The notes: generated by a model not told the origin, from the sequence alone. 64,000 bases of DNA from an uncultured Chloroflexia bacterium (GCA_963825525.1 CAWGTN010000002.1:393021-457020), one strand, 5' to 3'; shown: positions 800 to 43,183, counted from the stretch's first letter. Translations and numbers: made by a program.

Positions 800-2340
800 G
801 ACACCCTCCCGAAATCGATCAGGCCGATCGTGAGGTTGCCCAGGCCGCGCAGGCCGTCGGCCACCAACCACCAATTCTCGTCATACGACCACGGAATGAC
901 CGGCGCCTCCTCCGCCACGCGCTCCTCGACCGCGTCGTACGCGCGGCCGACCTCGTCTTCGGCTGCCCCCGCGGCCGCGTCCAGCAGTCGAACGAAGTCG
1001 GCGTCGCGCCATCGCCCGTAGTTGCTCAGTGCGTCCGGCTCGAGGAGAAGGCCGTACAGCGCGTGCGGAGACGCGTAGTCGGCGATCCAGTTGATCGTGA
1101 AGATCTGCGGCGGTCTCGACTCCAGGTCCTGGAGAAATGCCCCGGCACCGGGAGTCTCCGTCTCGATGGTCACGCCCAGCTCTTCGCGCCATACGGCGAC
1201 AGCCGGGTCAACAAAGAGCCCGTAGGCGTTGACCGTGATCGTGCCCAGGTCCGCCCGATCCTCGTACCCGGCCTCGTCGAGCAATTGGCGGGCGCGGGCT
1301 GGATCGCTCGCCAGGCGCGGGCTGAAGCCCTCTGGCCAGATGGCGGGAGGCACGATGCTCGCCGCCGCCATCGATCCACCGCCCTCCGACAGCGGCACCA
1401 GGCGCTCCCGGTCGAGTGCAAGGCTGAACGCCAGGCGCACGCGGGCATCGTCGAACGGCGGACGCGACGTGTCGAATCCGAAGTAGCTGATGGTGAGCGG
1501 CTCGGCGGCATGCAGCCGCTTGCCGAGGTCGCGGTCATAGGCAATCCAGGTGGCGTCCGAGCCGGCCACCGGCGCCAGGTCGACGTTCCCGTCCGCGAAC
1601 GCGTTCACCGATCCGCCGTCAGCACCTCCCACCCACCGAACCTCGTCGATCGGAGGCGGACCGGCGACGTAGCGCGGGTTTGCCTTGAGCACGACATCGG
1701 CGCCATCGAGGCCATCGATGACGTAGGGGCCGCTGCCGACGAAGGCATCCGGGTTCTGCCAGGTCGGCGTCGCATCGGCCGTCGCCGGGACGACGAACGT
1801 GGTCGGAGTTGCCACGATGTCAAGAAAGTACGAGGCCGGGTGCCGAAGGGTGACGATCAGGGTTCGATCATCGGGCGCCGCGATCGCGACCTCGTCCGCC
1901 TCGATCTCCCCGGCGATGCGCTCCGGCGCGCCACGGATGATGCTCAGCACATCGGGCGCCGTTGCACTCGTGGCCGGGTCCAGCAGGCGAAGCCACGAGC
2001 GTCGGACATCCTCGGCCACCAGCGGATCGCCATCGCTGAACTCGAGATCGGGTCGAATCGCGAACTCATAGGTGAGCCCGTCGTCGCTGATCTCCCACCC
2101 GGAGGCGAGAGAGGGGTACGGCTCGCCGGTCTCGTCCAGCCGCGTCAACCCGGCATACACCTGGAGCAGGAACTGCACGTCGCCGGCGTTGATGATGAAC
2201 GCCGGATCGAGGGTGCTCGGCGCTCCGCCCAGGTAGCGGAGGGGCGGGCCGGCGGCGCGCGCGCTGCTGCCCGGAAGCGCCACGGCCAGCACGACAGCGC
2301 CCGCCGCGACCAACGCGGCTACCCGTGTCAGATGTCGCAT
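787..2340 (-). CDS. ABC transporter substrate-binding protein, family 5 (peptide/nickel, OppA/DppA-like)
   Basis: 517-aa ORF with an N-terminal signal peptide and length and composition typical of cluster C binding proteins; co-oriented with the metalloprotease. Confidence 0.85.
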   Translation of the reverse strand: MRHLTRVAALVAAGAVVLAVALPGSSARAAGPPLRYLGGAPSTLDPAFIINAGDVQFLLQVYAGLTRLDETGEPYPSLASGWEISDDGLTYEFAIRPDLEFSDGDPLVAEDVRRSWLRLLDPATSATAPDVLSIIRGAPERIAGEIEADEVAIAAPDDRTLIVTLRHPASYFLDIVATPTTFVVPATADATPTWQNPDAFVGSGPYVIDGLDGADVVLKANPRYVAGPPPIDEVRWVGGADGGSVNAFADGNVDLAPVAGSDATWIAYDRDLGKRLHAAEPLTISYFGFDTSRPPFDDARVRLAFSLALDRERLVPLSEGGGSMAAASIVPPAIWPEGFSPRLASDPARARQLLDEAGYEDRADLGTITVNAYGLFVDPAVAVWREELGVTIETETPGAGAFLQDLESRPPQIFTINWIADYASPHALYGLLLEPDALSNYGRWRDADFVRLLDAAAGAAEDEVGRAYDAVEERVAEEAPVIPWSYDENWWLVADGLRGLGNLTIGLIDFGRVSWDG

Positions 2341-2405
2341 GCGGGCTCCATTGGCGAGGCGGCCAGGATGAGAGCTCGACGCACGGCGGCTAGTATACGG
2401 TCGCC

Positions 2406-2942
2406 GTGCAGCCCGTCCATGAACACCGATTTCAACCCCAGCCCGCGGGCAGTCTGACCCTGCGCCAGTTCGTCGAATCTCTTCGCCGATGGACGCCGGA
2501 GATGCGCCAGATGGTGCAGATCGCGCTCACTCGCACGGCGGAAGAACGCGGGACCTACCTCCAGCAGTTCCATGCCGGCCATCACGAGCGGCAGCCCGGA
2601 CCACTCGACGGCTTCATGCGATGGGCGTACTCCGACCCGCGGCTGGAGGACATCCCCCTCCTGCTGGCCGAGCTGGACCGCACCGATGGGGACTACGCGG
2701 GCGCGCTGGAGCACGAGGCCGATGTCCTCGTCCGGGAACGCGCTCATGGCAAGTCGGCGGCTCAGCGCGTGGCGGACTACCTCGCCCTGCTCGGCATGGA
2801 GACGAGCGATCGCGTCCGCGCCGCGGTGGCAAGCCTGCTTCCGCCGGAGACGCCGGCCCCGGCCGTTACCGCCACCATCCGGCAGATGCGCCGCAGATGG
2901 CTCGAGCTGTATGGCGACGATCCCTTCTTCGGCGAGGATTGA
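2406..2942 (+). CDS. hypothetical protein
   Basis: 178-aa ORF with protein-like composition and strong G/C preference at third codon positions; the overlapping minus-strand ORF is Arg/Gly-rich nonsense. Confidence 0.55.
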   Translation: MQPVHEHRFQPQPAGSLTLRQFVESLRRWTPEMRQMVQIALTRTAEERGTYLQQFHAGHHERQPGPLDGFMRWAYSDPRLEDIPLLLAELDRTDGDYAGALEHEADVLVRERAHGKSAAQRVADYLALLGMETSDRVRAAVASLLPPETPAPAVTATIRQMRRRWLELYGDDPFFGED

Positions 2943-2943
2943 C

Positions 2944-3564
2944 GTGAGGTCGCGGCGCACGCTGGGGTGGGCGTTGATCGCCTACGGCATGCTCGGCATC
3001 GCACTCATCGTGGGCGGAGCACCGGCCGGCCTGTCGCTGGCGGCGAGCGTCGAACGACTCGCGGTCACGGCCGACGACACGCTCCGCGCGGCCGTGACGA
3101 GTACCGAGGCCGCCGCGGCAGCATTCGTGAACGTGGATGGCAGTCTCGCTCAGGCGGAGTCATCGGCAGGGTCGGCCGCCCAGCTCTCGCGCGACGCATC
3201 GGGCACGCTGGCCTCACTCGCGGCCGCCATGGAGCTCTCGGTGTTCGGCGTTCAGCCGCTGTTGCCGCTGGCCGGCGAATTCGAGACCAGCGCCAGCCAG
3301 GCATCGGCTCTGGGCGATGAGCTGGCGGATGTGGCGGGTTCGATGGGCGGAACCCGGGAGGACGTGGCCCGCATCGGCACCGAGCTCAGTGGGTTGAGCA
3401 CCGAGCTCGGCAAGCTCAGGGAAGCGGGCGGGAGCGGTAGTGCTCCCCCTCCGATCCGCGCGTTCGTCCTGCTCCTGCTCGCCTGGCTGATGGTTCCGGC
3501 GGTCGGCGGCATCGTGGGTGGCGCCGCGCTCCTCAGATCCGGGATGCCACGCTCAACGACCTGA
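2944..3564 (+). CDS. membrane protein (N- and C-terminal TM helices, Ala/Ser/Glu-rich central region)
   Basis: GTG at 2944 lies 1 nt after the stop of the preceding gene and is preceded by GAGGAT. The product begins MRSRRTLGWALIAYGMLGIALIVGG. The in-frame 5' extension of ORF 2572..3564 is non-protein-like. Confidence 0.55.
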   Translation: MRSRRTLGWALIAYGMLGIALIVGGAPAGLSLAASVERLAVTADDTLRAAVTSTEAAAAAFVNVDGSLAQAESSAGSAAQLSRDASGTLASLAAAMELSVFGVQPLLPLAGEFETSASQASALGDELADVAGSMGGTREDVARIGTELSGLSTELGKLREAGGSGSAPPPIRAFVLLLLAWLMVPAVGGIVGGAALLRSGMPRSTT

Positions 3565-3568
3565 AGGA

Positions 3569-4777
3569 TCAATCGGCGGTGCGGATCACCCGTCGCAGGC
3601 GCAGCAACGCCCCGACATACAACACCACGCCGATCCCGAGCAGCGCGAAGAGCATCCACGGTGTGGTCACCGACCCTCGGAGCATGAGGTCCTGGAGCGT
3701 GGCGATGCCGTGGGTCACCGGCAACGCGTACGCGATGTACTGCATCCACTCGGCGAAATCGCTGACGGGCAGAACGAATCCGGAGAAGAAGACGCTCGCC
3801 AGGAGGATGAGCATGCTCAGCTGCACCGCCTGCCGCTCCGAGTCCGCGACCAGGGAGATCAGCAGCCCGAACCCGAGCGACGCGAACGTCAGCAGCAGCA
3901 CGATCCCGGCGAACATCGCGATGCTCCCGAGCAGGGGAACCCCCAGCACCCCGACCAGCAGCGCGCCAACGATGCCGCTCACCACCAGGCTGAGTGCCGC
4001 GTAGGCCACGTACTTGCCGACAAGAAGCTCCATCGACGTCACCGGGGCCACCCTGAATCGGTCCATCTGGCCGGACAGCCGCTCACGGACCATCGACAGG
4101 GCGGTCAGCGTGATGGCCAGGTGCTGGATCACGAGCGCGAAGACTGCCGGGCCGAAGAAGTTCAGGACCTGCGGCTGCGAGGGCGCCACGTTCTCGGTCT
4201 CGGCCGTCGTGGGCCGCGCAATGACCTCGGGCGGAATGTTGGTGGCGGCCGGCCCCAGCTCACCCTCCGCGAAGTCGATCCCCTCGCCGGCCGCGCGCTC
4301 CACGATCTCGGCATTCAGGCTGCTCACCAGGATCGAGGTGGCCAACGTGGCCAATTGGTCGTAGACCGGGTCGACCTGGTTCCACGCCACGCGGATCGTC
4401 GTCTGGCGCCCAGCACGCAGCTCCTTCTCAGAGTCCTGCGGGACGATGACCAACAGGTCCATCTCGCCGTTGCGGAGGCGCTGTTCGGCCGCCGCACGGT
4501 CCTCGGACACCCGCGTCACTTCGAGGCGGCCGGGGGCCAGGCTCTCGTACGACTCGGCGGATCGCGAGAAGTCGCTTCCAACGGGCACCACGATCTCCGT
4601 GGCGAAGGGGGCGCGGTAGCCGCTGTAGCCGAGTCCGAACAGAAACATCACGAGGAACGGGCCGAGGATGAGGCTGAGGACGACCCCGGGGCGCCGGAGG
4701 ACCTCTCGGAGCTCCTTGCCCGTGAACGAGGCCATGCGGACCACGCTGTGCGAGATGCCCTGCCAGGCGCTACCCAC
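3569..4777 (-). CDS. ABC-2 family transporter permease
   Basis: 402 aa, with an N-terminal TM helix, a large extracytoplasmic loop and five C-terminal TM helices; overlaps the ATPase gene by 8 nt. Confidence 0.85.
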   Translation of the reverse strand: MGSAWQGISHSVVRMASFTGKELREVLRRPGVVLSLILGPFLVMFLFGLGYSGYRAPFATEIVVPVGSDFSRSAESYESLAPGRLEVTRVSEDRAAAEQRLRNGEMDLLVIVPQDSEKELRAGRQTTIRVAWNQVDPVYDQLATLATSILVSSLNAEIVERAAGEGIDFAEGELGPAATNIPPEVIARPTTAETENVAPSQPQVLNFFGPAVFALVIQHLAITLTALSMVRERLSGQMDRFRVAPVTSMELLVGKYVAYAALSLVVSGIVGALLVGVLGVPLLGSIAMFAGIVLLLTFASLGFGLLISLVADSERQAVQLSMLILLASVFFSGFVLPVSDFAEWMQYIAYALPVTHGIATLQDLMLRGSVTTPWMLFALLGIGVVLYVGALLRLRRVIRTAD

Positions 4778-5768
4778 GTGCCTGGTCCTCCAGCGGCTCG
4801 GGAGCGGGTCGTCCCTCGCGCGAGGCTCGCCGGCGCTCGACCAGCCCGGTGAAGACCTCGTCGAAGGTCGGCTGATGCTCCTCGAGACCGGTCACGCCGA
4901 TGCCGGCGCGGCGAAGGGTCTCGATGATCTGCGGCGTGGTGCTCGCGGCGTCCTCGGTCGTGACGATGAGCTTGCGGGCAGCCGGCTGGCGCACTCCGGT
5001 CACACCGGCCACGCTGGCCAGGACATCGGCGTCGACCGCGCGCTCGGTGTTCACCTCCAGCACTTCTCCGCCGAAGACGAGCCGGCGCAGGGCGTCGGGC
5101 GTGTCGAGCGCGACGAGTTCACCATCGGCAATGAGGGCCACCCGGTCGCAGTACTCGGCCTCGGTGACGTACTGCGTCGTGACCACCAGGGTTCGTCCGT
5201 CGTCTCGAAGCGCCCGGAGCTCGTCCCAGATCGCCTGGCGCAGGACCGGATCGATCCCGGCCGTGGGCTCGTCAACGAACAGCACATCCGGGCGGTGGAC
5301 CAGCGCGCAGGCGAGCTCGAGCCGGCGCTGCATGCCGCCTGAGAGGTCGCGCGCCAACCGGTGGCGAGCGTCATAGAGGTCCACGACCTCGAGCGCCCGC
5401 CGGATCTCGCGCCGACGTCGGAACGGCCCGATGCCGTAGAGGGCGGCAACGAACCCGACGTTCTCCTGGGCGGAGAGATCCTCGTACAGGCTGAACAGCT
5501 GGGGCATGTACGCGATGCGCCCGCGCGTCCTGCGGGTGAAGTCCATCGGGTCCTCGCCGAGAACGCTGATCTCACCTTCGTTACGGCCCAGCGTCCCGGT
5601 CAGCATCCGGATGGTCGTGGTCTTGCCCGACCCGCTCGGGCCGACGACGCCGAGGATGGTGCCGCGCTCAACCTCGAACGAGAGGTCATCGACGACGGTG
5701 CGGTCCTCGAAGGCGCGAGTCACGTGGGCGACCGAGATGATCGGTTGCGTGGCTTGTGGTGCGGTCAC
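4770..5768 (-). CDS. ABC transporter ATP-binding protein (ABC-2/DrrA-like with C-terminal extension)
   Basis: Walker A GPSGSGKTT, signature LSGGMQRR and Walker B LFVDEPTAGID. Start chosen at GTG 5768; the upstream 137 codons of the ORF are antisense-type nonsense. Confidence 0.85.
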   Translation of the reverse strand: MTAPQATQPIISVAHVTRAFEDRTVVDDLSFEVERGTILGVVGPSGSGKTTTIRMLTGTLGRNEGEISVLGEDPMDFTRRTRGRIAYMPQLFSLYEDLSAQENVGFVAALYGIGPFRRRREIRRALEVVDLYDARHRLARDLSGGMQRRLELACALVHRPDVLFVDEPTAGIDPVLRQAIWDELRALRDDGRTLVVTTQYVTEAEYCDRVALIADGELVALDTPDALRRLVFGGEVLEVNTERAVDADVLASVAGVTGVRQPAARKLIVTTEDAASTTPQIIETLRRAGIGVTGLEEHQPTFDEVFTGLVERRRASREGRPAPEPLEDQARG

Positions 5769-5903
5769 GGCCGTGCCGAATGCAAGTCGTGTGCCGCCCG
5801 CCGAGCAAGCCCTCGGCGCGAATTGGGATCCCCTGGTCCGGTCCGTTCCGGCATGCGATGTGCCAGTCGAAGCGGTGTAGCCGATGAGGAGACCAGCAAC
5901 CCG

Positions 5904-6155
5904 ATGACCAGCATGACCGCCGACGAGCGTGACGATCTTCGCAAGGACCAGTTCGCCTACGTCGACCGCGAGGGTGGCGAGCACCTGCCGATCCACGACG
6001 AGTCCCACGTGCGAAACGCCATTGCTCGCTTCAACCAGACCGATTTCGAGAGCAAGACGGCCAAGGAGGAGGCGCGCAAGAAGATCCTGCGCGCCGCCGA
6101 TCGGCACGGCATCGAAGTGGACGAGGACAGCAACGTCCGCCAACCGGTGCGCTGA
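5904..6155 (+). CDS. small acidic hypothetical protein, translationally coupled to ku
   Basis: ATG at 5904 preceded by GAGGAG. The 83-aa product begins MTSMTADERDDLRKDQFAYVDREGGEHLPIHDESHVRNAIARFNQ. Its stop TGA shares a base with the ku ATG (TGATG). Confidence 0.6.
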   Translation: MTSMTADERDDLRKDQFAYVDREGGEHLPIHDESHVRNAIARFNQTDFESKTAKEEARKKILRAADRHGIEVDEDSNVRQPVR

Positions 6156-6986
6156 TGCGACCGATCTGGAAGGGCGCAATCAGCTTCGGGATGGTCACCA
6201 TCCCGGTGAAGGTCTACACGGCCACCGAGGGGAAGGACGTGCGGTTCCGGCTCCTCCACAAGACGGACGGAGCGCCGATCGAGGAGAAGCGGTTCTGCAC
6301 CGAGGATGGGAAGGAAGTGGCCTGGGATGACCTCGTCCGTGGATACGAGGTCAGCAAGGGCGAGTTCGTGATCCTGGAGCCCGACGAGATCGACGCAGCC
6401 AAGCCTGAAAGCAGCACGACGATCGACATCGGCGACTTCGTGGAGGCTTCGGAGATCGACGCCGTCTACTTCGAGAAGAGCTACTTCCTCGAGCCGACCG
6501 GGGTCGGTGCCAAGCCCTTCAGCCTCCTGCGCCGCGCGCTCGAGGAGACCGATCGAGTGGCCCTGGCACGCGTGACACTCCGAACCCGGGAGCGGCTCGC
6601 CACGCTCCGCACGTACGAGGACACGCTGCTCCTCGAGACGATGTTCTGGCCCGATGAGATTCGATCGACCGGTGCGCTGGACCTTCCCGAAGGCGAGGAG
6701 GCGCGCGTCCGTGGCAAGGAGCTCGACATGGCGCGAACCCTCATCGGCGATCTGGCCGACCGGTTCCGTCCCGAGCGCTATACCGACACATACCGGACGG
6801 CGCTCGAGAGCCTGATCGAGCAGAAGATGCGGGGCGAGGTAAAGAACTCGAAGCGTCGAAAGGCCGAGCCCAAGGTCATCGACCTCATGGAGGCGCTCAA
6901 GGCGAGTGTTGCGGAGGCCGGCAAGAAGGGCACGAAGCGTCGCTCCGACCGCGGGCCGGCAGAAGAAGCGCCGCTCCGCCGCCTGA
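6155..6986 (+). CDS. ku: Ku family non-homologous end-joining DNA-binding protein; 3' end inferred assuming a 1-nt indel near 6953
   Basis: N-terminus MRPIWKGAISFGMVTIPVKVYTATE is diagnostic. As given, the frame has no stop until 7795 and runs antisense through the convergent gene. A 1-nt change in the GGG run at 6953-6955 yields the K/R-rich tail ...RRSDRGRQKKRRSAA followed by TGA at 6984-6986. Confidence 0.8.
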
Positions 6987-12744: not shown

Positions 12745-13317
12745 ATGAACCTCGACGGACTCAAGGTCGCCGTGCTGGTGACCGATGGTTACGAGCCAAG
12801 CGAGCTGACGGAGCCGGTCGCCGCCCTGCAGCAGGCGGGAGCGACCACCACGATCATCTCGAACCACGACGGCACCATCACTGGGAAGACTGATGCCGAC
12901 ACCGCGCAGGTCGACCTCACCCTCGACGGGGCCGATGCTGCCGAGTTCGACGCATTGCTGATCCCCGGCGGCACGAAGAATCCCGACACAATGCGACAGG
13001 AGCCGAAGGCGGTCGATTTCGTGCGCGCCATGTTCGACGCGAAGAAGCCGATGGCCTCCATCTGCCACGGCCCGTGGATGCTCATCGAGGCCGACGTCGT
13101 GCGCGGCCGCCGCGTGACGAGCTACCCCTCGCTGAGGACGGACCTGCGCAACGCCGGCGCCGAGTGGACCGATGAGGAGGTCGTCGTCGACCAGGGCCTC
13201 GTCACGGCCCGCACGCCGAAGGATCTCCCCGCGTTCAACGCCAAGATGGTCGAGGAGTTCGGCGAGGGCACCCACGACCGCCGATCGACGGCCGCCGAGC
13301 CCGTCAGCGCCGGCTGA
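12745..13317 (+). CDS. DJ-1/PfpI family protein (type 1 glutamine amidotransferase-like)
   Basis: ATG at 12745 with AGGAGA upstream; motif ASICHGPWMLIEA. The 5' two-thirds of ORF 12034..13317 are nonsense. Confidence 0.85.
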   Translation: MNLDGLKVAVLVTDGYEPSELTEPVAALQQAGATTTIISNHDGTITGKTDADTAQVDLTLDGADAAEFDALLIPGGTKNPDTMRQEPKAVDFVRAMFDAKKPMASICHGPWMLIEADVVRGRRVTSYPSLRTDLRNAGAEWTDEEVVVDQGLVTARTPKDLPAFNAKMVEEFGEGTHDRRSTAAEPVSAG

Positions 13318-13426
13318 CGATCGGGAGGCGGGATGTCGAGCGCGTCCTCGCCCGAGTCGCGCACCGAGGCACCGCAGCAAGCGCCTGCCGAGGGTCGTCC
13401 GGCGCCGTGATCGGTATCCTTGCGGC

Positions 13427-13772
13427 ATGCCAGCCATTCCCAGCGGGACGGTCACCTTCGTGTTCACCGATATCGAAGGCAGCACGCAGCTTCTGAAGCG
13501 GCTTGGAGACCGCTACGCCGAGCTCCTGGGCCAGCATCGGCGCCTGCTGCGCGCCACCTTTGCCGAGCATGACGGCCAGGAGATCGACACGCAGGGCGAT
13601 GCGTTCTTCTATTCGTTCGCACGTGCCCGCCAGGCAGTGGCCGCGGCGGTCCAGGCCCAGCGAGCGCACGACGAAGCCTCGTGGCCCGACGACGTCGTCC
13701 TCCGCGTCCGGATGGGCCTCCACACCGGTGAGCCTCTCGTCGGTGAGGAGGGGTACACCGGCCTCGATGTCG
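13427..13772 (+). pseudogene. 5' fragment of a class III adenylate/guanylate cyclase-domain regulator gene (cyclase-ATPase-LuxR type), truncated
   Basis: MPAIPSGTVTFVFTDIEGSTQLL...GDAFFYSF...RVRMGLHTGEP...YTGLDV matches the cyclase catalytic-domain N-terminus. Homology stops abruptly after about 115 codons. The ORF then runs on through a lower-GC tail into the convergent response-regulator gene. Confidence 0.55.
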
Positions 13773-13913
13773 TCCTGACCGACGATGACTTGGCAGTGGG
13801 CGCCCAGCCCATCCGACATGTTTGCGGTGCTTTCCACCGGATGGACCGCACTTGTCACGATGCTGCCAAAGAGTCGGGGCTCGGCCCTGCACGGACCAGT
13901 ACGTGGAACGCCG

Positions 13914-14507
13914 CTACTCGGTGCCCTCGAGCCAGCCCTCTCGCAGCGCCCTGGCCGTCAGCTCCGTGCGTGAGGCGACGCCCGTTCGTTCGAACAGTCG
14001 CCGCAGATGCGATTCCACGGTTCTCGAGCTGATGCCAAGCCGCCCGCCGATCTCATCGTTCGACGAGCCGCTGACGATGAGGTCGACCACCTCCCGCTCC
14101 CGGGCCGATAGCCGGACCCCACCTCCGGGCCTGACGCCGAAGGCCAGTCCGCCCGAGGCCGCCCGCCGAATCGCGTCCAGCAGCTCCGACGTGGGGGCGG
14201 TCTTGACCACAAACCCGGCCGCGCCGAGCCGCATGGCGGCATCGGCGTATTGAGGGTAGTCGTACGACGTCAGGCAGACCACGGCCGGCAATGCCGAGTC
14301 ACCGCGGTCGCGCAGGAGCTCGAATCCGGACTCCTGCCCGAGGCGGAGGTCGAGCAGCAGGACGTCGACCGAGCCATCGAGGAGCGGGCGCAGCTCGTCC
14401 AGCGATCCAGCCACTCCGGCGATCTGCATGTCATCGGCGCGATCGATGATGGCGGCCGTTCCCTCGCGCACCAGCGGATGGTCGTCGACGACCGCGACCC
14501 GGATCAT
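13914..14507 (-). CDS. two-component response regulator, NarL/LuxR family
   Basis: Receiver domain VAVVDDHPLVREG...LLLDLRL followed by a LuxR helix-turn-helix LSAREREVVDLIVSGSSNDEIGGRLGISSRTVESHL. Confidence 0.9.
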   Translation of the reverse strand: MIRVAVVDDHPLVREGTAAIIDRADDMQIAGVAGSLDELRPLLDGSVDVLLLDLRLGQESGFELLRDRGDSALPAVVCLTSYDYPQYADAAMRLGAAGFVVKTAPTSELLDAIRRAASGGLAFGVRPGGGVRLSAREREVVDLIVSGSSNDEIGGRLGISSRTVESHLRRLFERTGVASRTELTARALREGWLEGTE

Positions 14508-14519
14508 CGGCTCACTGGC

Positions 14520-15611
14520 TCATTGCGGGCGCCACTCGAGAGCGACACGCGTGCCGCCGCTCGGCCAGCGACGAACGTCGAGCAGGGCGCCGATCTGCTC
14601 CGCCCGCTGCTGCATGTTGACGAGCCCGAAGTGGCCATCGCCCGGCGCCTCCTCGGTGGCGTCGGAGCCGATCCCGTCGCCGGCGTCGTCGATGGCCAGC
14701 GTGACCCGTCCATCGGCGCTCACGTCGTAGCGGACCGCGATCGGCGGCTTGCCATGCTTGATCGCATTGGTCAGCGCTTCCTGGGCGACGCGGAAGACCG
14801 CCAGCTCCACGTCGGCGGGCGGGCGCGAGGCGTCGGAGCGCTCGAGCTTCACCACGCCGCCGGCAAGGGGCTCGACACGCTCGACGAGCCATTCGAGCGC
14901 GGCTCCGGCACCCAGATCGTCGAGGATCGGCAGGCGCAGGTCCCCGACCACGGAGCGCAGCTTCGTCGCGACCTCGCGTGCCTCGGCGGCTTCGGCTTCG
15001 TGGCCACCCTCGTCGAGGGTACGGACCAGCATGGTGAGCTGCTGGAGCGCGTCGTCGTGGAGGTCCGCGGCCAGGCGAGCGCGCTCCGTCTCCGCGGCCG
15101 CGACCGCGACGTCGCGCTGGAGCTGGGTCCTGACTGCCAGTCCAACGAGCGGATTGATCGCGAGGTAGCGCCAGACCACGATCCCGCCAAGCCAGCCGGC
15201 AAGGATCAGCCCGCCGGCCGAGTTCGGTACGAGGACCAGCGACGCGACAAGTGGTGTTGCGGCCACCGCAAGCGTCTCGAGGCGCCACGCCATCGCCCTC
15301 GGTTCGGTCCGATCAGCGAAGGCGACCGGGATGCCCGGGATGAGTGGGATCAATCCCACCAGAGGGACGAAGAAGCGGGATTGGAGCAGGGCGGTGATGA
15401 CGAACAGGCCGGCGAGGCCGACCGAAGCCATGAAGAGGCGTGCCGCAAGTGATGGATCGGAGTGGCGCGACGCGAGCAGATGCGCGACCGACAATCCGGC
15501 AAAGGCGGCCGGCAGCAACAGGATCGGTTGACCTTCGGAGTACGACCCCCAGGCGGCGGGCACCAGGAGGATCGGAACGGCGACGGCTGCTGCCAGACGG
15601 AATGGCCGCAT
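14520..15611 (-). CDS. sensor histidine kinase, HisKA_3/NarL-type, multi-TM N-terminus
   Basis: About five TM helices, followed by the H-box LAADLHDDALQQL and an HATPase_c region (DDAGDGIG, GLVNMQQRA). In this frame, TGA lies 20 codons upstream of the ATG. Confidence 0.85.
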   Translation of the reverse strand: MRPFRLAAAVAVPILLVPAAWGSYSEGQPILLLPAAFAGLSVAHLLASRHSDPSLAARLFMASVGLAGLFVITALLQSRFFVPLVGLIPLIPGIPVAFADRTEPRAMAWRLETLAVAATPLVASLVLVPNSAGGLILAGWLGGIVVWRYLAINPLVGLAVRTQLQRDVAVAAAETERARLAADLHDDALQQLTMLVRTLDEGGHEAEAAEAREVATKLRSVVGDLRLPILDDLGAGAALEWLVERVEPLAGGVVKLERSDASRPPADVELAVFRVAQEALTNAIKHGKPPIAVRYDVSADGRVTLAIDDAGDGIGSDATEEAPGDGHFGLVNMQQRAEQIGALLDVRRWPSGGTRVALEWRPQ

Positions 15612-16458
15612 CGGTCCAGTCGCTGCCGAACACGCCCTGGCGCAGCCCGATCCAGATCACGAGGCCGACGGCAGAACCGAGGACGATCGCCCACTCCGAC
15701 TGGTGGGTGAGAGAGATGACCAGTGCGAGGCCGATGAGCGCGAGGGTGAGCAGGTCCCGACGCTCGCGATCGAGCGGGGACGCCGTCGGATCCGGCGAGA
15801 TCCGCACCGATCGCATGCGCGCGAACCCCGCGCTGACCCGTCGCATTCCTCGCTCCCACGGAAGCGCAAAGCTGGTGGCAACAGCCCCGAACGCCACCAT
15901 GGGCCACACCGGCATGACGTCGCTCGGCACGATGGCAACGAGGCCGATGGCGGGCAGGATGCCCAGCGCAAACAGCTGCCCGCGCTCGCGTGCGCTGCGC
16001 TTCCCGGTCAGTCCGGCAAGCACCCCGGGCGCGAATGCAACGGCGCCATAGAGCACGGCGATCGGGCCTCGCTCGTCCGGTGACAGCGTCGGCGTCGTCA
16101 TGTGCTGCACCACGAGCAGCGCCGCCACCACGGCGGCTCCGCCAGTGATCGCCAGTCCCGCCCGCCTACGGCCCTGAGACGACATGTGGTCGACGAGTCC
16201 CATGCCCAGGAGCACGGCCACAGCAAGCGTGGTCGCCCAGGTCGCGGCGACGCCGACCCCGCTACCGACTTCGACGACCGGGACCAGCAGGAGCGGCAAC
16301 GCCACGGCCACAGCGGCGACGAACGCCAAGCGCCGTCCCGCAGCGCCCATCAGTCCGCGGAGGAGGAGATACGCGACGATGGCGGCCAGCAGCAGGCCGA
16401 ACCCCACGGCGTAGATGTCGGTGGCGAGCGTGCTCTCGAGCCACTGGCGCTCCATCAT
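15313..16458 (-). CDS. polytopic membrane protein (LiaF-position partner of the two-component system); true 3' end uncertain
   Basis: TM-rich sequence from MMERQWLESTLATDIYAVGFGLLLAAIVAYLL through to ...IWIGLRQGVFGSDWTD. After that the frame continues as Arg-rich nonsense for 300 nt over the HK N-terminal coding region. Confidence 0.5.
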   Translation of the reverse strand: MMERQWLESTLATDIYAVGFGLLLAAIVAYLLLRGLMGAAGRRLAFVAAVAVALPLLLVPVVEVGSGVGVAATWATTLAVAVLLGMGLVDHMSSQGRRRAGLAITGGAAVVAALLVVQHMTTPTLSPDERGPIAVLYGAVAFAPGVLAGLTGKRSARERGQLFALGILPAIGLVAIVPSDVMPVWPMVAFGAVATSFALPWERGMRRVSAGFARMRSVRISPDPTASPLDRERRDLLTLALIGLALVISLTHQSEWAIVLGSAVGLVIWIGLRQGVFGSDWTDAAIPSGSSRRRSDPPGARRLGVVLRRSTDPVAAGRLCRIVGRASARVAPLRSITCGTPLHGFGRPRRPVRHHRPAPIPLLRPSGGIDPTHPGHPGRLR

Positions 16459-16489
16459 TCCGTACCCGTACACCACGACCCCGCGCTGG

Positions 16490-16978
16490 TCGCCCTCGAA
16501 CGCGCCTGTCTTCGTAGACGTCGCCCACGATGATGCCGGCGATGCGGCCGGATGAGATCGCCTCGATCGGGATGGACATGGCGTCGCCGTATTCCGAGTG
16601 CATGACGACCTCCCCGACGCCAGGCGAATCCAGCGTCGATACGGACTCAACCGGGGCACCGTCGACCGTGGTCAGGGACACGACGCGCGAGCCGGGGTAG
16701 ATGCCGTTGCGCGCGGCGTTCCCATCAGGCGTGACGGACACGACGAAGACGCCCGGGAGGGTCGCATCCGCGAATCCGGGCAAGGGCATCATCGCGGCGG
16801 CCTGCGATCCCTCCGCGAGCTCGAGCCCGATGGCGACGCGGCCGTTCGCCCACAACGCGACGCTCGACAGCACGGCGCCGGTCGCGATGAGGATCGCCAG
16901 GACGTCGCGCCAGGTGGGTCGCAGCGGCATGCTCGGACCATACCAGCGCTCCATCGGCCCACCAATGCGGTAGATCAC
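16490..16978 (-). CDS. membrane-anchored PDZ domain protein, N-terminal part; reading frame lost near 16500 (possibly one gene with 15313..16458)
   Basis: Product begins MIYRIGGPMERWYGPSMPLRPTWRDVLAILIATGAVLSSVALW, followed by a PDZ-like GVFVVSVTPDGNAARNGIYPGSRVVSLTTVDGAPV. After IIVGDVYEDRR the frame turns to Arg-rich nonsense. Confidence 0.5.
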
Positions 16979-17182
16979 CTAATCGGAAGCGGTGAGCCAC
17001 CGGATGGGCGTCGGCTCATCTCACGGTCACCATTGGCTGCCGAGGAGGTGAATCGATGCAGACCCTTCGCGCGTCCGCCATCGCGGTCCCGTTCGTCGCC
17101 CTCGCCGTGCTGGTGGCGCTGCTCTCTCTGATCGTCGGGCCGGGGGCCTAGGCGTCTTTGCCGGCTAAGCACCGAGATTCGG

Positions 17183-17611
17183 CTAGGCGGGCGAGGCGTC
17201 CCCGATTTGACGGCCTTCACCTTCGCAGCCCCAGCCGATCCTTGGCTGCGGACGGCCACCGATCAAGGGTCCGTCGCGTTCGACGAACACGATGAGCTGC
17301 TCGTTCGGTGTCCCCGCGACGTCGCCAACTTCGCCGTCGGGCGGCGGCACGCACCAGCACTCGGAGTAGCCTGCGTTCCCGTTCATCGACGTCCCGTAGG
17401 AGTAGCGCCAGCTTGGACGGATGCCAGCAGCCTCGAGCGCCGCGCTCGCCTCTTCGGCGCTGAGTCCGGTGATCGGAGGCACTTCCCTGTCGCCAAGCAC
17501 CTCATCGGCAGCCGGCGGGTCCTGGCAAGCCAAACCGCTCTCTCCGATCCCGAGCCCGCACGCCGTCAGCACCGTGAACAGGCCGATGAGCAACCCGACT
17601 CGCACGACCAT
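17183..17611 (-). CDS. lipoprotein with PASTA-like domain
   Basis: Lipobox LTAC; motif ITGLSAEEASAALEAAGIRPSW. Confidence 0.6.
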   Translation of the reverse strand: MVVRVGLLIGLFTVLTACGLGIGESGLACQDPPAADEVLGDREVPPITGLSAEEASAALEAAGIRPSWRYSYGTSMNGNAGYSECWCVPPPDGEVGDVAGTPNEQLIVFVERDGPLIGGRPQPRIGWGCEGEGRQIGDASPA

Positions 17612-17612
17612 G

Positions 17613-17714
17613 CTACGAGCGGCGGAACGCGAAGATCATCACCACGATCACGATGATGACCACGACCAGCCCCACGATGAGCCCGACTGGCGAGCCAACA
17701 TCGACCGTATTCAC
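17613..17714 (-). CDS. candidate small single-TM peptide (33 aa)
   Basis: GTG start giving MNTVDVGSPVGLIVGLVVVIIVIVVMIFAFRRS; the stop TAG abuts the lipoprotein ATG. The complementary strand here reads as a His/Asp-rich low-complexity stretch. Confidence 0.3.
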   Translation of the reverse strand: MNTVDVGSPVGLIVGLVVVIIVIVVMIFAFRRS

Positions 17715-17739
17715 GCGGCGATCCTCCCCTGGGTCGTTC

Positions 17740-17815
17740 TGGCGCCCCCGGAGGGATTCGAACCCCCGACGCCCGCCTTAGGACGGCGGCGCTCTATCCA
17801 CTGAGCTACGGGGGC
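17740..17815 (-). tRNA. tRNA-Arg (anticodon CCT)
   Basis: Manual fold: acceptor GCCCCCG/CGGGGGC, D-arm GCTCAGTGGATAGAGC, anticodon stem CCGCC/GGCGG with loop GTCCTAA, T-arm GGGGGTTCGAATCCCTC, encoded CCA. Confidence 0.9.
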
Positions 17816-17849
17816 GGCGCCAGCTCAAGCCTACCGTATCATCCGCGCC

Positions 17850-18083
17850 ATGCCGTCCCGTCCCACGCTCTATGTCCGCCACGGGTGCCACCTGTGCGAG
17901 GACGCGAGCGTCCTTCTCGACGCCATGCTGGGAGCCGATGGATGGGACGCGGTCGACATCGAGGCCGATGACGACCTCCTCGTGCGCTACGCGCACCGAA
18001 TCCCCGTGCTCGCCGTCGACGGCGAGGATCGGTGCGAACTGATGATCACCCGTCCCGACGTCGAGGCGGCGCTGGCCCGATGA
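17850..18083 (+). CDS. glutaredoxin-like protein (DUF836 family)
   Basis: 77 aa with CHLC (CxxC) near the N-terminus; the stop overlaps the next start (ATGA). Confidence 0.8.
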   Translation: MPSRPTLYVRHGCHLCEDASVLLDAMLGADGWDAVDIEADDDLLVRYAHRIPVLAVDGEDRCELMITRPDVEAALAR

Positions 18084-41876: not shown

Positions 41877-42515
41877 CTACTGCTGGGCCGGGGGGAGCAG
41901 CGCCCGCACTGCGGCGTGCATCCGGGCCGTTGCCTGCTCGAGGGCCTCGCGGTCGATACGTCCCGATGGCTGATGTGGAAGGGTGATCGGTTCCCCGATC
42001 CGCACGGTCAGGCGGGTCGCGTGAGGGATGCGGGAGCCGTCGGGGAAGAGCCGGTGTGATCCGGCGATCGCGACCGGCAGCACCGGAGCACCGGACCGGA
42101 TGGCGAGGAACGCTGCCCCGGACTTGAACTCCTTCAGGTGGCCGTTTCTTGATCGCGTGCCCTCCGCGAAGATCGCGATCGGGCGGCCGGAGGCCAATGT
42201 CTCGAGGCTGAAGCGCTGCGCGTTTCGGTCGCCTTCCCCACGCCGCACGAAATACGTGCCTGACTGGGTCGCCAGCCAGCCGATGAAGAACCAGCTGCGC
42301 ATCTCGATCTTGGCCATGAAGTGAATCACGCGCCCCACCTGGTGGCCGGTCGCCCAGCCGATGAAGGGCGGATCCAGGTTCGAGCAGTGGTTCGACACCA
42401 GGATGAACGACCCCGTGCGCGGCACGTGCTCGACTCCCTCTGCCCGCAGTCCCCACAGCAGGCGCGCCGCCCCAGCGATGAGTGCCGCACCGGGATGGAA
42501 GAACCAGCTACGCAT
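41877..42515 (-). CDS. plsC: 1-acyl-sn-glycerol-3-phosphate acyltransferase
   Basis: Motifs NHCSNLD (HX4D) and FAEGTRS; ATG at 42515. Confidence 0.85.
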   Translation of the reverse strand: MRSWFFHPGAALIAGAARLLWGLRAEGVEHVPRTGSFILVSNHCSNLDPPFIGWATGHQVGRVIHFMAKIEMRSWFFIGWLATQSGTYFVRRGEGDRNAQRFSLETLASGRPIAIFAEGTRSRNGHLKEFKSGAAFLAIRSGAPVLPVAIAGSHRLFPDGSRIPHATRLTVRIGEPITLPHQPSGRIDREALEQATARMHAAVRALLPPAQQ

Positions 42516-43183
42516 CGAGCTCCTCCAGGCGAGCCACCATGGCGTCGACGCATTGGGTGACGTCCAGCCGGCCCGTGTCAAGCACCAGGGCATTCGGAGG
42601 AACGCGAAGCGGGGCCACGGCTCGCTCCGAGTCCGCCGCGTCGCGGTCCCGAATCTCGGCCAGGTATGCGGCGACGCGATCCGGACGCCCCATCTCGTTC
42701 GCACGACGCGCGGCGCGGACCTCGGCATCGGCTGTCAGGAACACCTTGAGCGTCGCTTCGGGCAGCACCACGGTGCCGATGTCGCGCCCGACCATGACCA
42801 CGTCGCCGCGCATGCGCCGTCGCTCGCTGGACGCCGAGCATCGCCTCGCGAACCTCCGCGTGCCGGCTCACCGCACTGACGGCCCGGTCCACGGGTGGGG
42901 TGCGGACCTCGAGCGTCACGTCGCGCCCCTCCAGCCGCACCGTCTCGAGACGGTCCACCTGGTGGGCTGCGGGCTTCTCGACCGCGATCGCGCAGTCATT
43001 GGCGAGCCGTCCGAGTGCCGCGCCGTCATGCAGGTCAACCCCGCGCTCGAGAGCGGCGAGCGTCAGGGCCCGGTACATGAGCCCGGTGTCGACGAACGTG
43101 GCGTCGATGCGGCGCGCGAGCGCATGGCCCACCGTGCTCTTGCCTGCACCCGACGGGCCGTCGACGGCGATCGCCCGGCTCAT
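42508..43183 (-). CDS. cmk: cytidylate kinase; apparent 1-nt frameshift near 42800-42840
   Basis: N-terminal half MSRAIAVDGPSGAGKSTV...REAMLGVQR is in ORF 42578..43183. C-terminal half RGDVVMVGRDIGTVVLPEATLKVFLTA... is in ORF 42508..42813 in the +1 frame. Confidence 0.85.

Follow-up and report, generated by a model that had tools for sequence, protein, structure and literature searches.

We analysed a 64,000-nucleotide stretch of DNA from an uncultured Chloroflexia bacterium (GCA_963825525.1 CAWGTN010000002.1:393021-457020), hereafter the window, whose GC content is ~69% and from whose first letter all coordinates are counted. Positions 13,914 to 17,714 had been read, in a preliminary description, as a tightly packed LiaFSR-like envelope module made of a small transmembrane (TM) peptide, a PASTA lipoprotein, PDZ and polytopic membrane proteins, an intramembrane-sensing kinase and a LuxR-type regulator. 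Our findings demonstrate that three members of this list, 'PDZ protein', 'polytopic membrane protein' and '5-TM kinase', are pieces of one sensor histidine kinase gene of ~800 residues, which runs from 16930 to 14520 on the minus strand. We consider it probable that the locus encodes a single two-component system restricted to Candidatus Limnocylindria, composed of this kinase, a NarL-type response regulator and a divergent micropeptide, and that the three apparent genes result from two probably artefactual insertions. The system is of an ordinary class, with an unusual lineage-specific sensor and a conserved micropeptide.

One kinase gene read in three frames

The three middle open reading frames (ORFs) of the raw list, of 238, 448 and 363 amino acids (aa), mutually overlap by 300–400 nt, which is unlike true neighbouring genes and makes their separateness doubtful. 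Indeed, the plot of GC content at third codon positions (GC3) displays a change of coding frame from 1 to 0 near 16515 and from 0 to 2 near 15610, with a stop codon at neither switch, and past each switch the tail of the preceding ORF drops its coding signal. When the kinase stitched from the three frames was used as a query against a collection of 5.8 billion proteins, 25 proteins were retrieved, the intact ones measuring 769–834 aa (most of them 777–816) with a query coverage of 89–100% (mostly 95–100%), homologues of 777–834 aa span 99% of the stitched kinase, and the alignment runs unbroken over both frame junctions; several are annotated as 'signal transduction histidine kinase' or 'ATP-binding protein [Candidatus Limnocylindria bacterium]'. 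In addition, tblastn recovered the kinase in a single frame in all 13 full-length loci assembled from short reads, and the breakpoints were located via a contig (L001) that is 98.9% identical to the window. The gene is one because the frame switches occur without stops, the homologues are full-length and the short-read loci keep a single frame. What had been taken for separate PDZ and polytopic membrane proteins corresponds to the first two-thirds of the kinase, counted from its N-terminus, and the impression of an undescribed gene combination came largely from ORFs split by frameshifts. The window kinase is frame-broken and retains an intact H-box (LAADLHDD), an intact N-box and intact G-boxes.

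The sensor was modelled with AlphaFold2 from the first 140 residues of the window kinase (predicted local distance difference test, pLDDT, 84.5) and from the sensor region of a homologue, P0010 (pLDDT 81.4). In the former model, a TM helix (residues 7–28) is followed by a beta-rich domain, for which Foldseek against the PDB returned almost only PDZ domains and PDZ-containing proteases (DegS, DegQ, Scribble and Par-6; E-values 0.06–0.6), while the Pfam PDZ profile scores under its threshold for the window and finds no match in two intact homologues. The N-terminal extracytoplasmic domain is, as modelled, PDZ-like but divergent. The P0010 model predicts ~16 TM helices whose cytoplasmic loops carry positive charges in agreement with the positive-inside rule, and places outside the membrane a PDZ-like loop of ~105 residues, which is acidic (21 D+E versus 5 K+R). 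The predicted order of the kinase is TM1, the acidic extracytoplasmic PDZ-like domain, ~15 more TM helices and the core of dimerization/phosphotransfer and catalytic domains (DHp/CA). The earlier picture of a ~5-TM intramembrane-sensing kinase is replaced by that of a much larger sensor, and its PDZ-like domain, which resembles PDZ folds and stays below the Pfam cutoff, belongs to the kinase and not to a separate protein. Of the proposed envelope sensing, what stands is a sensor that appears heavily membrane-embedded and envelope-facing, with a PDZ-like domain; the PASTA part of that proposal comes down to a sub-threshold match (see below).

The HisKA_3 kinase itself had been correctly recognized. 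Both an H-box domain and HATPase_c were found, the latter above the Pfam cutoff (36.8 bits) and HisKA_3 marginally under its own (23.4 bits, cutoff 24); hhalign matches the HisKA_3 core of ComP with a probability of 96%, and the NCBIfam matches are to the cores of MctS, NarQ, NarX and LiaS. The DHp/CA core (14520–15110; 197 residues) is 81–90% identical across family loci L003–L019 without any indel, and the sensor regions of the same homologues are 33–65% identical to the stitched query. At the 4-fold degenerate sites of the core, identity is 0.38–0.56 versus 0.43 expected by chance, and this combination of high core identity with chance-level silent sites indicates extreme purifying selection. 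Recent horizontal transfer or gene conversion, considered as a source of the near-invariant core, is ruled out by the same degenerate sites. Judged from these comparisons, the constraint on the core is unusually tight for a kinase whose sensor falls to ~35% identity.

A module shared across the family

The family sample comprises the neighbourhoods of the homologues together with 27 GTDB loci, all of the latter from metagenome-assembled genomes (MAGs) labelled Candidatus Limnocylindria or 'uncultured Chloroflexia', and the kinase family is restricted to Candidatus Limnocylindria. In this uncultured class of soil and freshwater Chloroflexota, a HisKA_3 core carries a lineage-restricted sensor with a predicted PDZ-like ectodomain and ~16 TM helices, always paired with a 31-aa micropeptide and a putative operator of 7-2-7 type, and usually with an unusual five-permease ABC-2 exporter. 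The window displays a divergent micropeptide, the 7-2-7 box, the ~800-aa kinase and the NarL-type regulator, all four in orthologous positions.

The LuxR-type regulator, also present as previously described, combines a receiver (Response_reg, 61.9 bits) with an adjacent GerE/LuxR helix-turn-helix domain (GerE, 57.3 bits), and its NCBIfam matches are of NarL type, every one under the equivalog cutoff. It follows the kinase in every family locus long enough to show it and is 57–87% identical (tblastn) to the kinase-adjacent regulator of the other scorable loci, NfeD often coming next. Just upstream of the kinase, the exact motif TGCGKGA-NN-TCMCGCA is found once per locus in 13 family loci and in 0 of 52 unrelated loci. 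The window copy has 3 mismatches at the 14 specified positions, which taken alone is chance level, but its position is orthologous. In a search for other sites of the box, matches at three or fewer mismatches in the window number 16 versus 17 expected by chance, and no regulon can be called from them. The box lies in the divergent kinase–micropeptide intergenic region of ~125 bp and abuts an arrangement conserved across loci, TTGGTG / 17 nt / TGnTAYCGT / 6–7 nt / ATG, the window kinase having its ATG at 16930, 6 nt past the −10. The arrangement would point to a promoter of the extended −10 type and to a kinase mRNA that is leaderless, and we infer both from this conserved pattern. A terminator scan of 13700–17900 returned a single terminator-like site, at chance level.

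On the other side of the intergenic region, a 31-aa ORF (MQTLRASAIA(L/V)PFV...) with the Shine-Dalgarno sequence (SD) AGGAGGTG diverges from the kinase and recurs at the equivalent place in 18 other loci; gene callers annotate it in L001, L003, L004 and L086. Its ratio of nonsynonymous to synonymous differences per site (pN/pS) is 0.38, its N-terminal 14 residues are near-invariant despite synonymous change, and it encodes no more than a hydrophobic TM helix, with neither leader nor cleavage motif. Since this plus-strand gene stands between the lipoprotein and the kinase, the locus is not entirely on the minus strand, as had been stated, and the lipoprotein and kinase form no simple tight operon. 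An inverted repeat CAUCGG...CCGAUG brackets the micropeptide SD and ends at the AUG (16990–17058 in plus sense, and also in orthologous loci), and the motif CCGGATGG, ~55 nt upstream, is conserved as well. An RNA hairpin at the SD and start was tried as a candidate and set aside, the folding and covariation support being weak (RNAalifold −2.9 kcal/mol, 6 pairs, a compensatory change in one pair).

Behind the micropeptide, most loci encode a DrrA-type ATP-binding cassette (ABC) ATPase (73–90% identical between loci) and then five paralogous ABC-2_memb_rel permeases, and the micropeptide stop overlaps the ATPase start in L004, L011, L012 and L023. As an example, the exporter operon occupies 1233–6899 on the minus strand of L004, and it was also seen in L008–L012, L015, L017, L018, L022–L024 and L027; its five tandem permease paralogues are 28–47% identical to one another. 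The operon is missing at this site in the window and in L001, L002, L003, L005, L007 and L030, and in the window the micropeptide stands alone. No homologue of the ABC-2_memb_rel permease was found anywhere in the window, where the only ATPase match is a generic one (34%, at 5145–5684). Note that L011 and L012 both come from one MAG, MFD05747.bin.1.151, which holds two full paralogous modules (exporter, micropeptide, kinase and regulator), and these two copies indicate that the family expanded within the Limnocylindria.

These elements could be assembled into the following mechanism. The polytopic, PDZ-like sensor would perceive a membrane- or envelope-associated cue, and the kinase would then phosphorylate the co-transcribed NarL-type regulator. 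A dimer of the latter is presumed to bind the 7-2-7 box in the ~125-bp divergent region, from where it would control both the leaderless kinase–regulator transcript and the micropeptide transcript, i.e., autoregulation plus expression of the micropeptide and of the exporter in those loci that have one. In most family members, the micropeptide transcript would continue into the ATPase and the five ABC-2-like permeases to form a sense-and-export module, while the lineage of the window may have lost the exporter here, or never had it, and kept the micropeptide alone. The persistence of the micropeptide without the exporter would suggest a tie first of all to the kinase, in the role of co-sensor or feedback element.

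Consensus error, decay or another kind of system

The two 1-nt insertions (16510 and 15597/8) are likely to be artefacts, most plausibly Nanopore or other long-read consensus errors at strain-variable positions, and a real, very recent disruption of the kinase seems unlikely to us. The kinase is broken in 8 of the 12 long-read 'contig_N' loci and in none of the 13 short-read loci (Fisher p = 4.6e-4), and ABC and regulator genes are also broken in several of these frame-broken long-read loci; MFD MAGs were built from Nanopore data only, by Flye assembly and one Medaka round (PMC12313526). Elsewhere in the window, the gene cmk (42508–43183, minus strand) appears as two overlapping ORFs in different frames, which match positions 1–111 and 113–209 of Pfam Cytidylate_kin, and an indel in this essential housekeeping gene implies that consensus errors are present in the assembly. 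Moreover, the window, L001 and L086 are 98–99% identical assemblies with differing kinase indels: L086 has the G of 16510 but not the extra base of 15597/8, shows at window position 15186 an extra G seen in neither of the others, and carries four indels in the genes flanking the kinase. At the second junction, L086 reads CCG-CTG and L001 CCT-CTG, so that the CCGT of the window resembles a merger of the two alleles. The comparison of the window with L001 gave synonymous/nonsynonymous differences of 4.5/2.5 (PDZ part), 13/5 (TM part), 13/1 (catalytic part) and 20/3 (regulator), i.e., a pN/pS of 0.03–0.22 over all three kinase pieces and the regulator, which represents strong purifying selection, and GC3 periodicity is undiminished within each piece.

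Several observations weigh against this interpretation. The extra G at 16510 is common to two separate assemblies, the window and L086, which differ by nearby single-nucleotide polymorphisms (SNPs), and an inherited real frameshift explains such sharing better than random error. All four window-versus-L001 indel events fall inside the kinase gene (chance ~0.003). In addition, the missing exporter and the degenerate box are both compatible with a decaying system, and a scan of 13700–17900 with the E. coli-type sigma-70 consensus found no promoter, that of the kinase lying below threshold. One could then suppose that the frameshifts are real and that the kinase is a recent pseudogene, or a truncated kinase of ~360 aa with 5–6 TM helices initiated at the in-frame ATG at 15611 ahead of piece 3, in a system decaying after exporter loss. 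We regard this as doubtful, since purifying selection and periodicity are maintained in every piece, the breaks vary among near-identical assemblies and are absent from short-read ones, the second insertion looks like merged alleles, cmk is broken in the same window, and no SD precedes the ATG at 15611. Within the region, SNPs are densest in the kinase and the regulator, and in such stretches consensus errors are expected to gather. Over 13914–15100, synonymous divergence (pS) from L001 is 0.12 in the regulator and 0.086 in the catalytic part of the kinase, 2–10 times higher than in the flanking genes (0–0.05), which suggests a local recombination import or a strain-variable hotspot. It should be noted that the gene calls of L086 fuse Dcd with Lactamase_B (1427–2884) and a Glrx-like protein with Redoxin (3474–4262), owing to single-base indels by which L086 departs from both the window and L001. 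Generally, single-base consensus errors in high-GC long-read MAGs can make one large membrane kinase look like a multi-gene 'novel module', they cluster in the gene that, within the region, varies most between strains, and a frame plot together with homologue length quickly exposes the split genes.

The lipoprotein and the 33-aa TM peptide named in the preliminary description exist as ORFs, the former with its lipobox. The family of this lipoprotein counts at least 64 small proteins, which share a lipobox and four additional conserved Cys (GLACQ, GYSECWC, GWGC), and no family of Pfam or NCBIfam covers the protein. Its PASTA match reaches 17.8 bits versus a cutoff of 23.2 and spans profile positions 2–25 only (24/64), it turns up, again below threshold, in 12 of 34 family members, and the family profile found PknB PASTA in the PDB at E = 0.65. 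The first 25 residues are PASTA-like at a sub-threshold level, and the PASTA domain is not confirmed, for want of a significant match over the full ~64 residues. The lipoprotein and the 33-aa ORF lie beside the kinase only in the strain cluster of the window (window, L001 and L086), and three lipoprotein homologues occur in unrelated contexts, near PspA/TPM_phosphatase, PspC or extracytoplasmic function (ECF) sigma genes, from which membership of the lipoprotein in the module was rejected. The pair is a neighbour and no conserved partner of the kinase.

A LiaFSR-like operon for envelope stress, in which a PASTA lipoprotein, PDZ and LiaF-like proteins would modulate a small intramembrane kinase, is scarcely plausible in view of these results. 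In its favour stand the pairing of a HisKA_3 kinase and a NarL-type regulator, which LiaSR and VraTSR have as well, the weak PDZ and PASTA matches, and the occasional proximity of lipoprotein homologues to PspA, PspC or ECF sigma genes, and an envelope-stress flavour is here only suggested. In every intact homologue, the supposed accessory proteins and the kinase form one continuous chain, so the membrane proteins said to hold the LiaF/VraT position are the kinase N-terminus; Pfam searched to E ≤ 1 gave no match of LiaF or LiaI type, no LiaF/VraT homologue is present, the kinase has no 2-TM intramembrane sensor, and the LiaS equivalog model scores 37 bits versus a cutoff of 450. The lipoprotein and the 33-aa ORF are moreover separated from the kinase by a plus-strand gene and lose their synteny outside the strain cluster. 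A quorum-sensing system resembling ComX-ComP-ComA (ComQXPA), in which the kinase would sense the 31-aa product as a secreted or membrane peptide, seems very unlikely as well. The likeness is one of architecture: the PDZ-like segment of ComP lies in its first extracytoplasmic loop, and both kinases share size (~770–800 aa), the order TM1/PDZ-like loop/multi-TM, a HisKA_3 core and a NarL-type partner. The combination PDZ + HisKA_3 + HATPase_c is catalogued as the ComP class (PMC6411480), and one may add that a conserved small peptide gene adjoins the kinase and that the ABC exporter could export the peptide. Against this, hhalign with the authentic ComP profile aligns columns 589–764 only, i.e., the catalytic core, and the sensors have no detectable homology; the sensor here is restricted to the Limnocylindria, the 31-aa product carries no leader or cleavage motif, and neither a ComQ-like prenyltransferase nor a ComX equivalent is among the genes listed for the homologue neighbourhoods.

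A bolder possibility, which we hold only tentatively, is an undescribed sensing device: a Limnocylindria-only 16-TM PDZ-like sensor with an obligatorily linked micropeptide as co-sensor or feedback regulator, the micropeptide being in most species also the first cistron of a six-gene exporter. Within this reading, the minimal version in the window (kinase, regulator and micropeptide, no exporter) would mean that the partner of the micropeptide is the kinase and not the transporter. Small membrane proteins are known to modulate sensor kinases in the MgrB-PhoQ and SafA-PhoQ pairs, and by analogy a short single-TM peptide encoded beside the kinase, and probably co-regulated with it, could feed back on it. 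The micropeptide has no sequence relationship to those small proteins and is mostly the first exporter cistron, so it could instead be a transporter subunit. If the micropeptide is a partner of the kinase, it would add, outside the proteobacteria, to the cases in which a small protein controls two-component signalling, and would provide a way into envelope sensing or antibiotic sensing by the Limnocylindria.

For the two-component system that we favour, the functionally closest counterparts are probably the LnrJK-LnrLMN-type systems, in which the kinase LnrJ is of HisKA_3 type and the regulator LnrK of NarL type. LnrJK-LnrLMN (YfiJK-LMN) of Bacillus subtilis places kinase and regulator beside an ABC exporter operon (one nucleotide-binding domain plus permease genes) that the regulator induces (PMC7472640). 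The canonical loci of the family share this logic of a two-component system with an adjacent exporter, here with a DrrA-type ATPase; they differ by a kinase with ~16 predicted TM helices and an extracytoplasmic PDZ-like domain, and by an exporter operon that is divergent, headed by a 31-aa micropeptide and endowed with five permease paralogues, the window itself being without exporter. The module is not of Bce type, since the family transporter combines a DrrA-like ATPase with ABC-2_memb_rel permeases and is not of BceAB/FtsX type, and the window has no adjacent transporter. BceS is a HisKA-type kinase, not HisKA_3.

Coordinates and neighbouring features

Table 1. Features of the locus and its immediate surroundings, in order of position.
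Feature	Position	Strand	Remarks
NarL/LuxR-family response regulator, 197 aa	13914-14507	-	Response_reg + GerE; begins 12 nt past the kinase stop
Sensor histidine kinase, conceptual 802 aa, three frames	14520-16930	-	Frame plot, homologues, Pfam
Kinase piece 3: last ~6 TM helices (predicted) + HisKA_3/HATPase_c	14520-15596	-	
363-aa ORF with HisKA_3 + HATPase_c	14520-15611	-	Raw ORF list
448-aa hydrophobic ORF	15313-16659	-	Raw ORF list
One extra base, ATTCC[GT]CTGG, frame 0 to 2	15597/15598	-	Pairwise DNA alignments with L001 and L086
Kinase piece 2: TM2 to ~TM10 (predicted)	15598-16509	-	
238-aa ORF with weak PDZ match	16262-16978	-	Raw ORF list
Extra G, GAA[G]ACAGG, frame 1 to 0	16510	-	Pairwise DNA alignments; absent in L001, present in L086
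Kinase piece 1: TM1 + PDZ-like domain (predicted)	16511-16930	-	
Putative kinase promoter	16937-16965	-	-35 TTGGTG 16960-16965, 17-nt spacer, extended -10 TGgTATGGT, hexamer 16937-16942
Degenerate 7-2-7 inverted-repeat box TAGGTGA-TC-TACCGCA	16966-16981	-	Putative response-regulator box abutting the -35; family consensus TGCGTGATCTCCCGCA, window variant TAGGTGATCTACCGCA
31-aa single-TM micropeptide ORF MQTLRASAIAVPFVALAVLVALLSLIVGPGA	17056-17151	+	SD GAGGAGGTG; divergent from kinase
142-aa lipoprotein ORF, lipobox LTAC	17183-17611	-	Four conserved Cys family
33-aa hydrophobic ORF	17613-17714	-	GGAGGA Shine-Dalgarno; stop overlaps lipoprotein ATG
tRNA-Arg(CCT)	17740-17815	-	Neighbour upstream of the 33-aa ORF; context only

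The 33-aa TM peptide is translationally coupled to the lipoprotein, and the pair comes directly after the tRNA gene (Table 1). Note that the automatic frameshift scan of the whole window yielded false positives for the most part, since a GC content of 69% makes off-frame ORFs long, and that cmk is the one verified case; the same scan flags, as a candidate, a possible same-strand frame change without a stop at ~5900–6450. Downstream of the regulator, a plus-strand ORF (13172–14032) is convergent with it and overlaps its 3′ end, and contains at ~13440–13745 part of the catalytic domain of an adenylate/guanylate cyclase (Pfam positions 5–114 of 183), which is either truncated or frameshifted.

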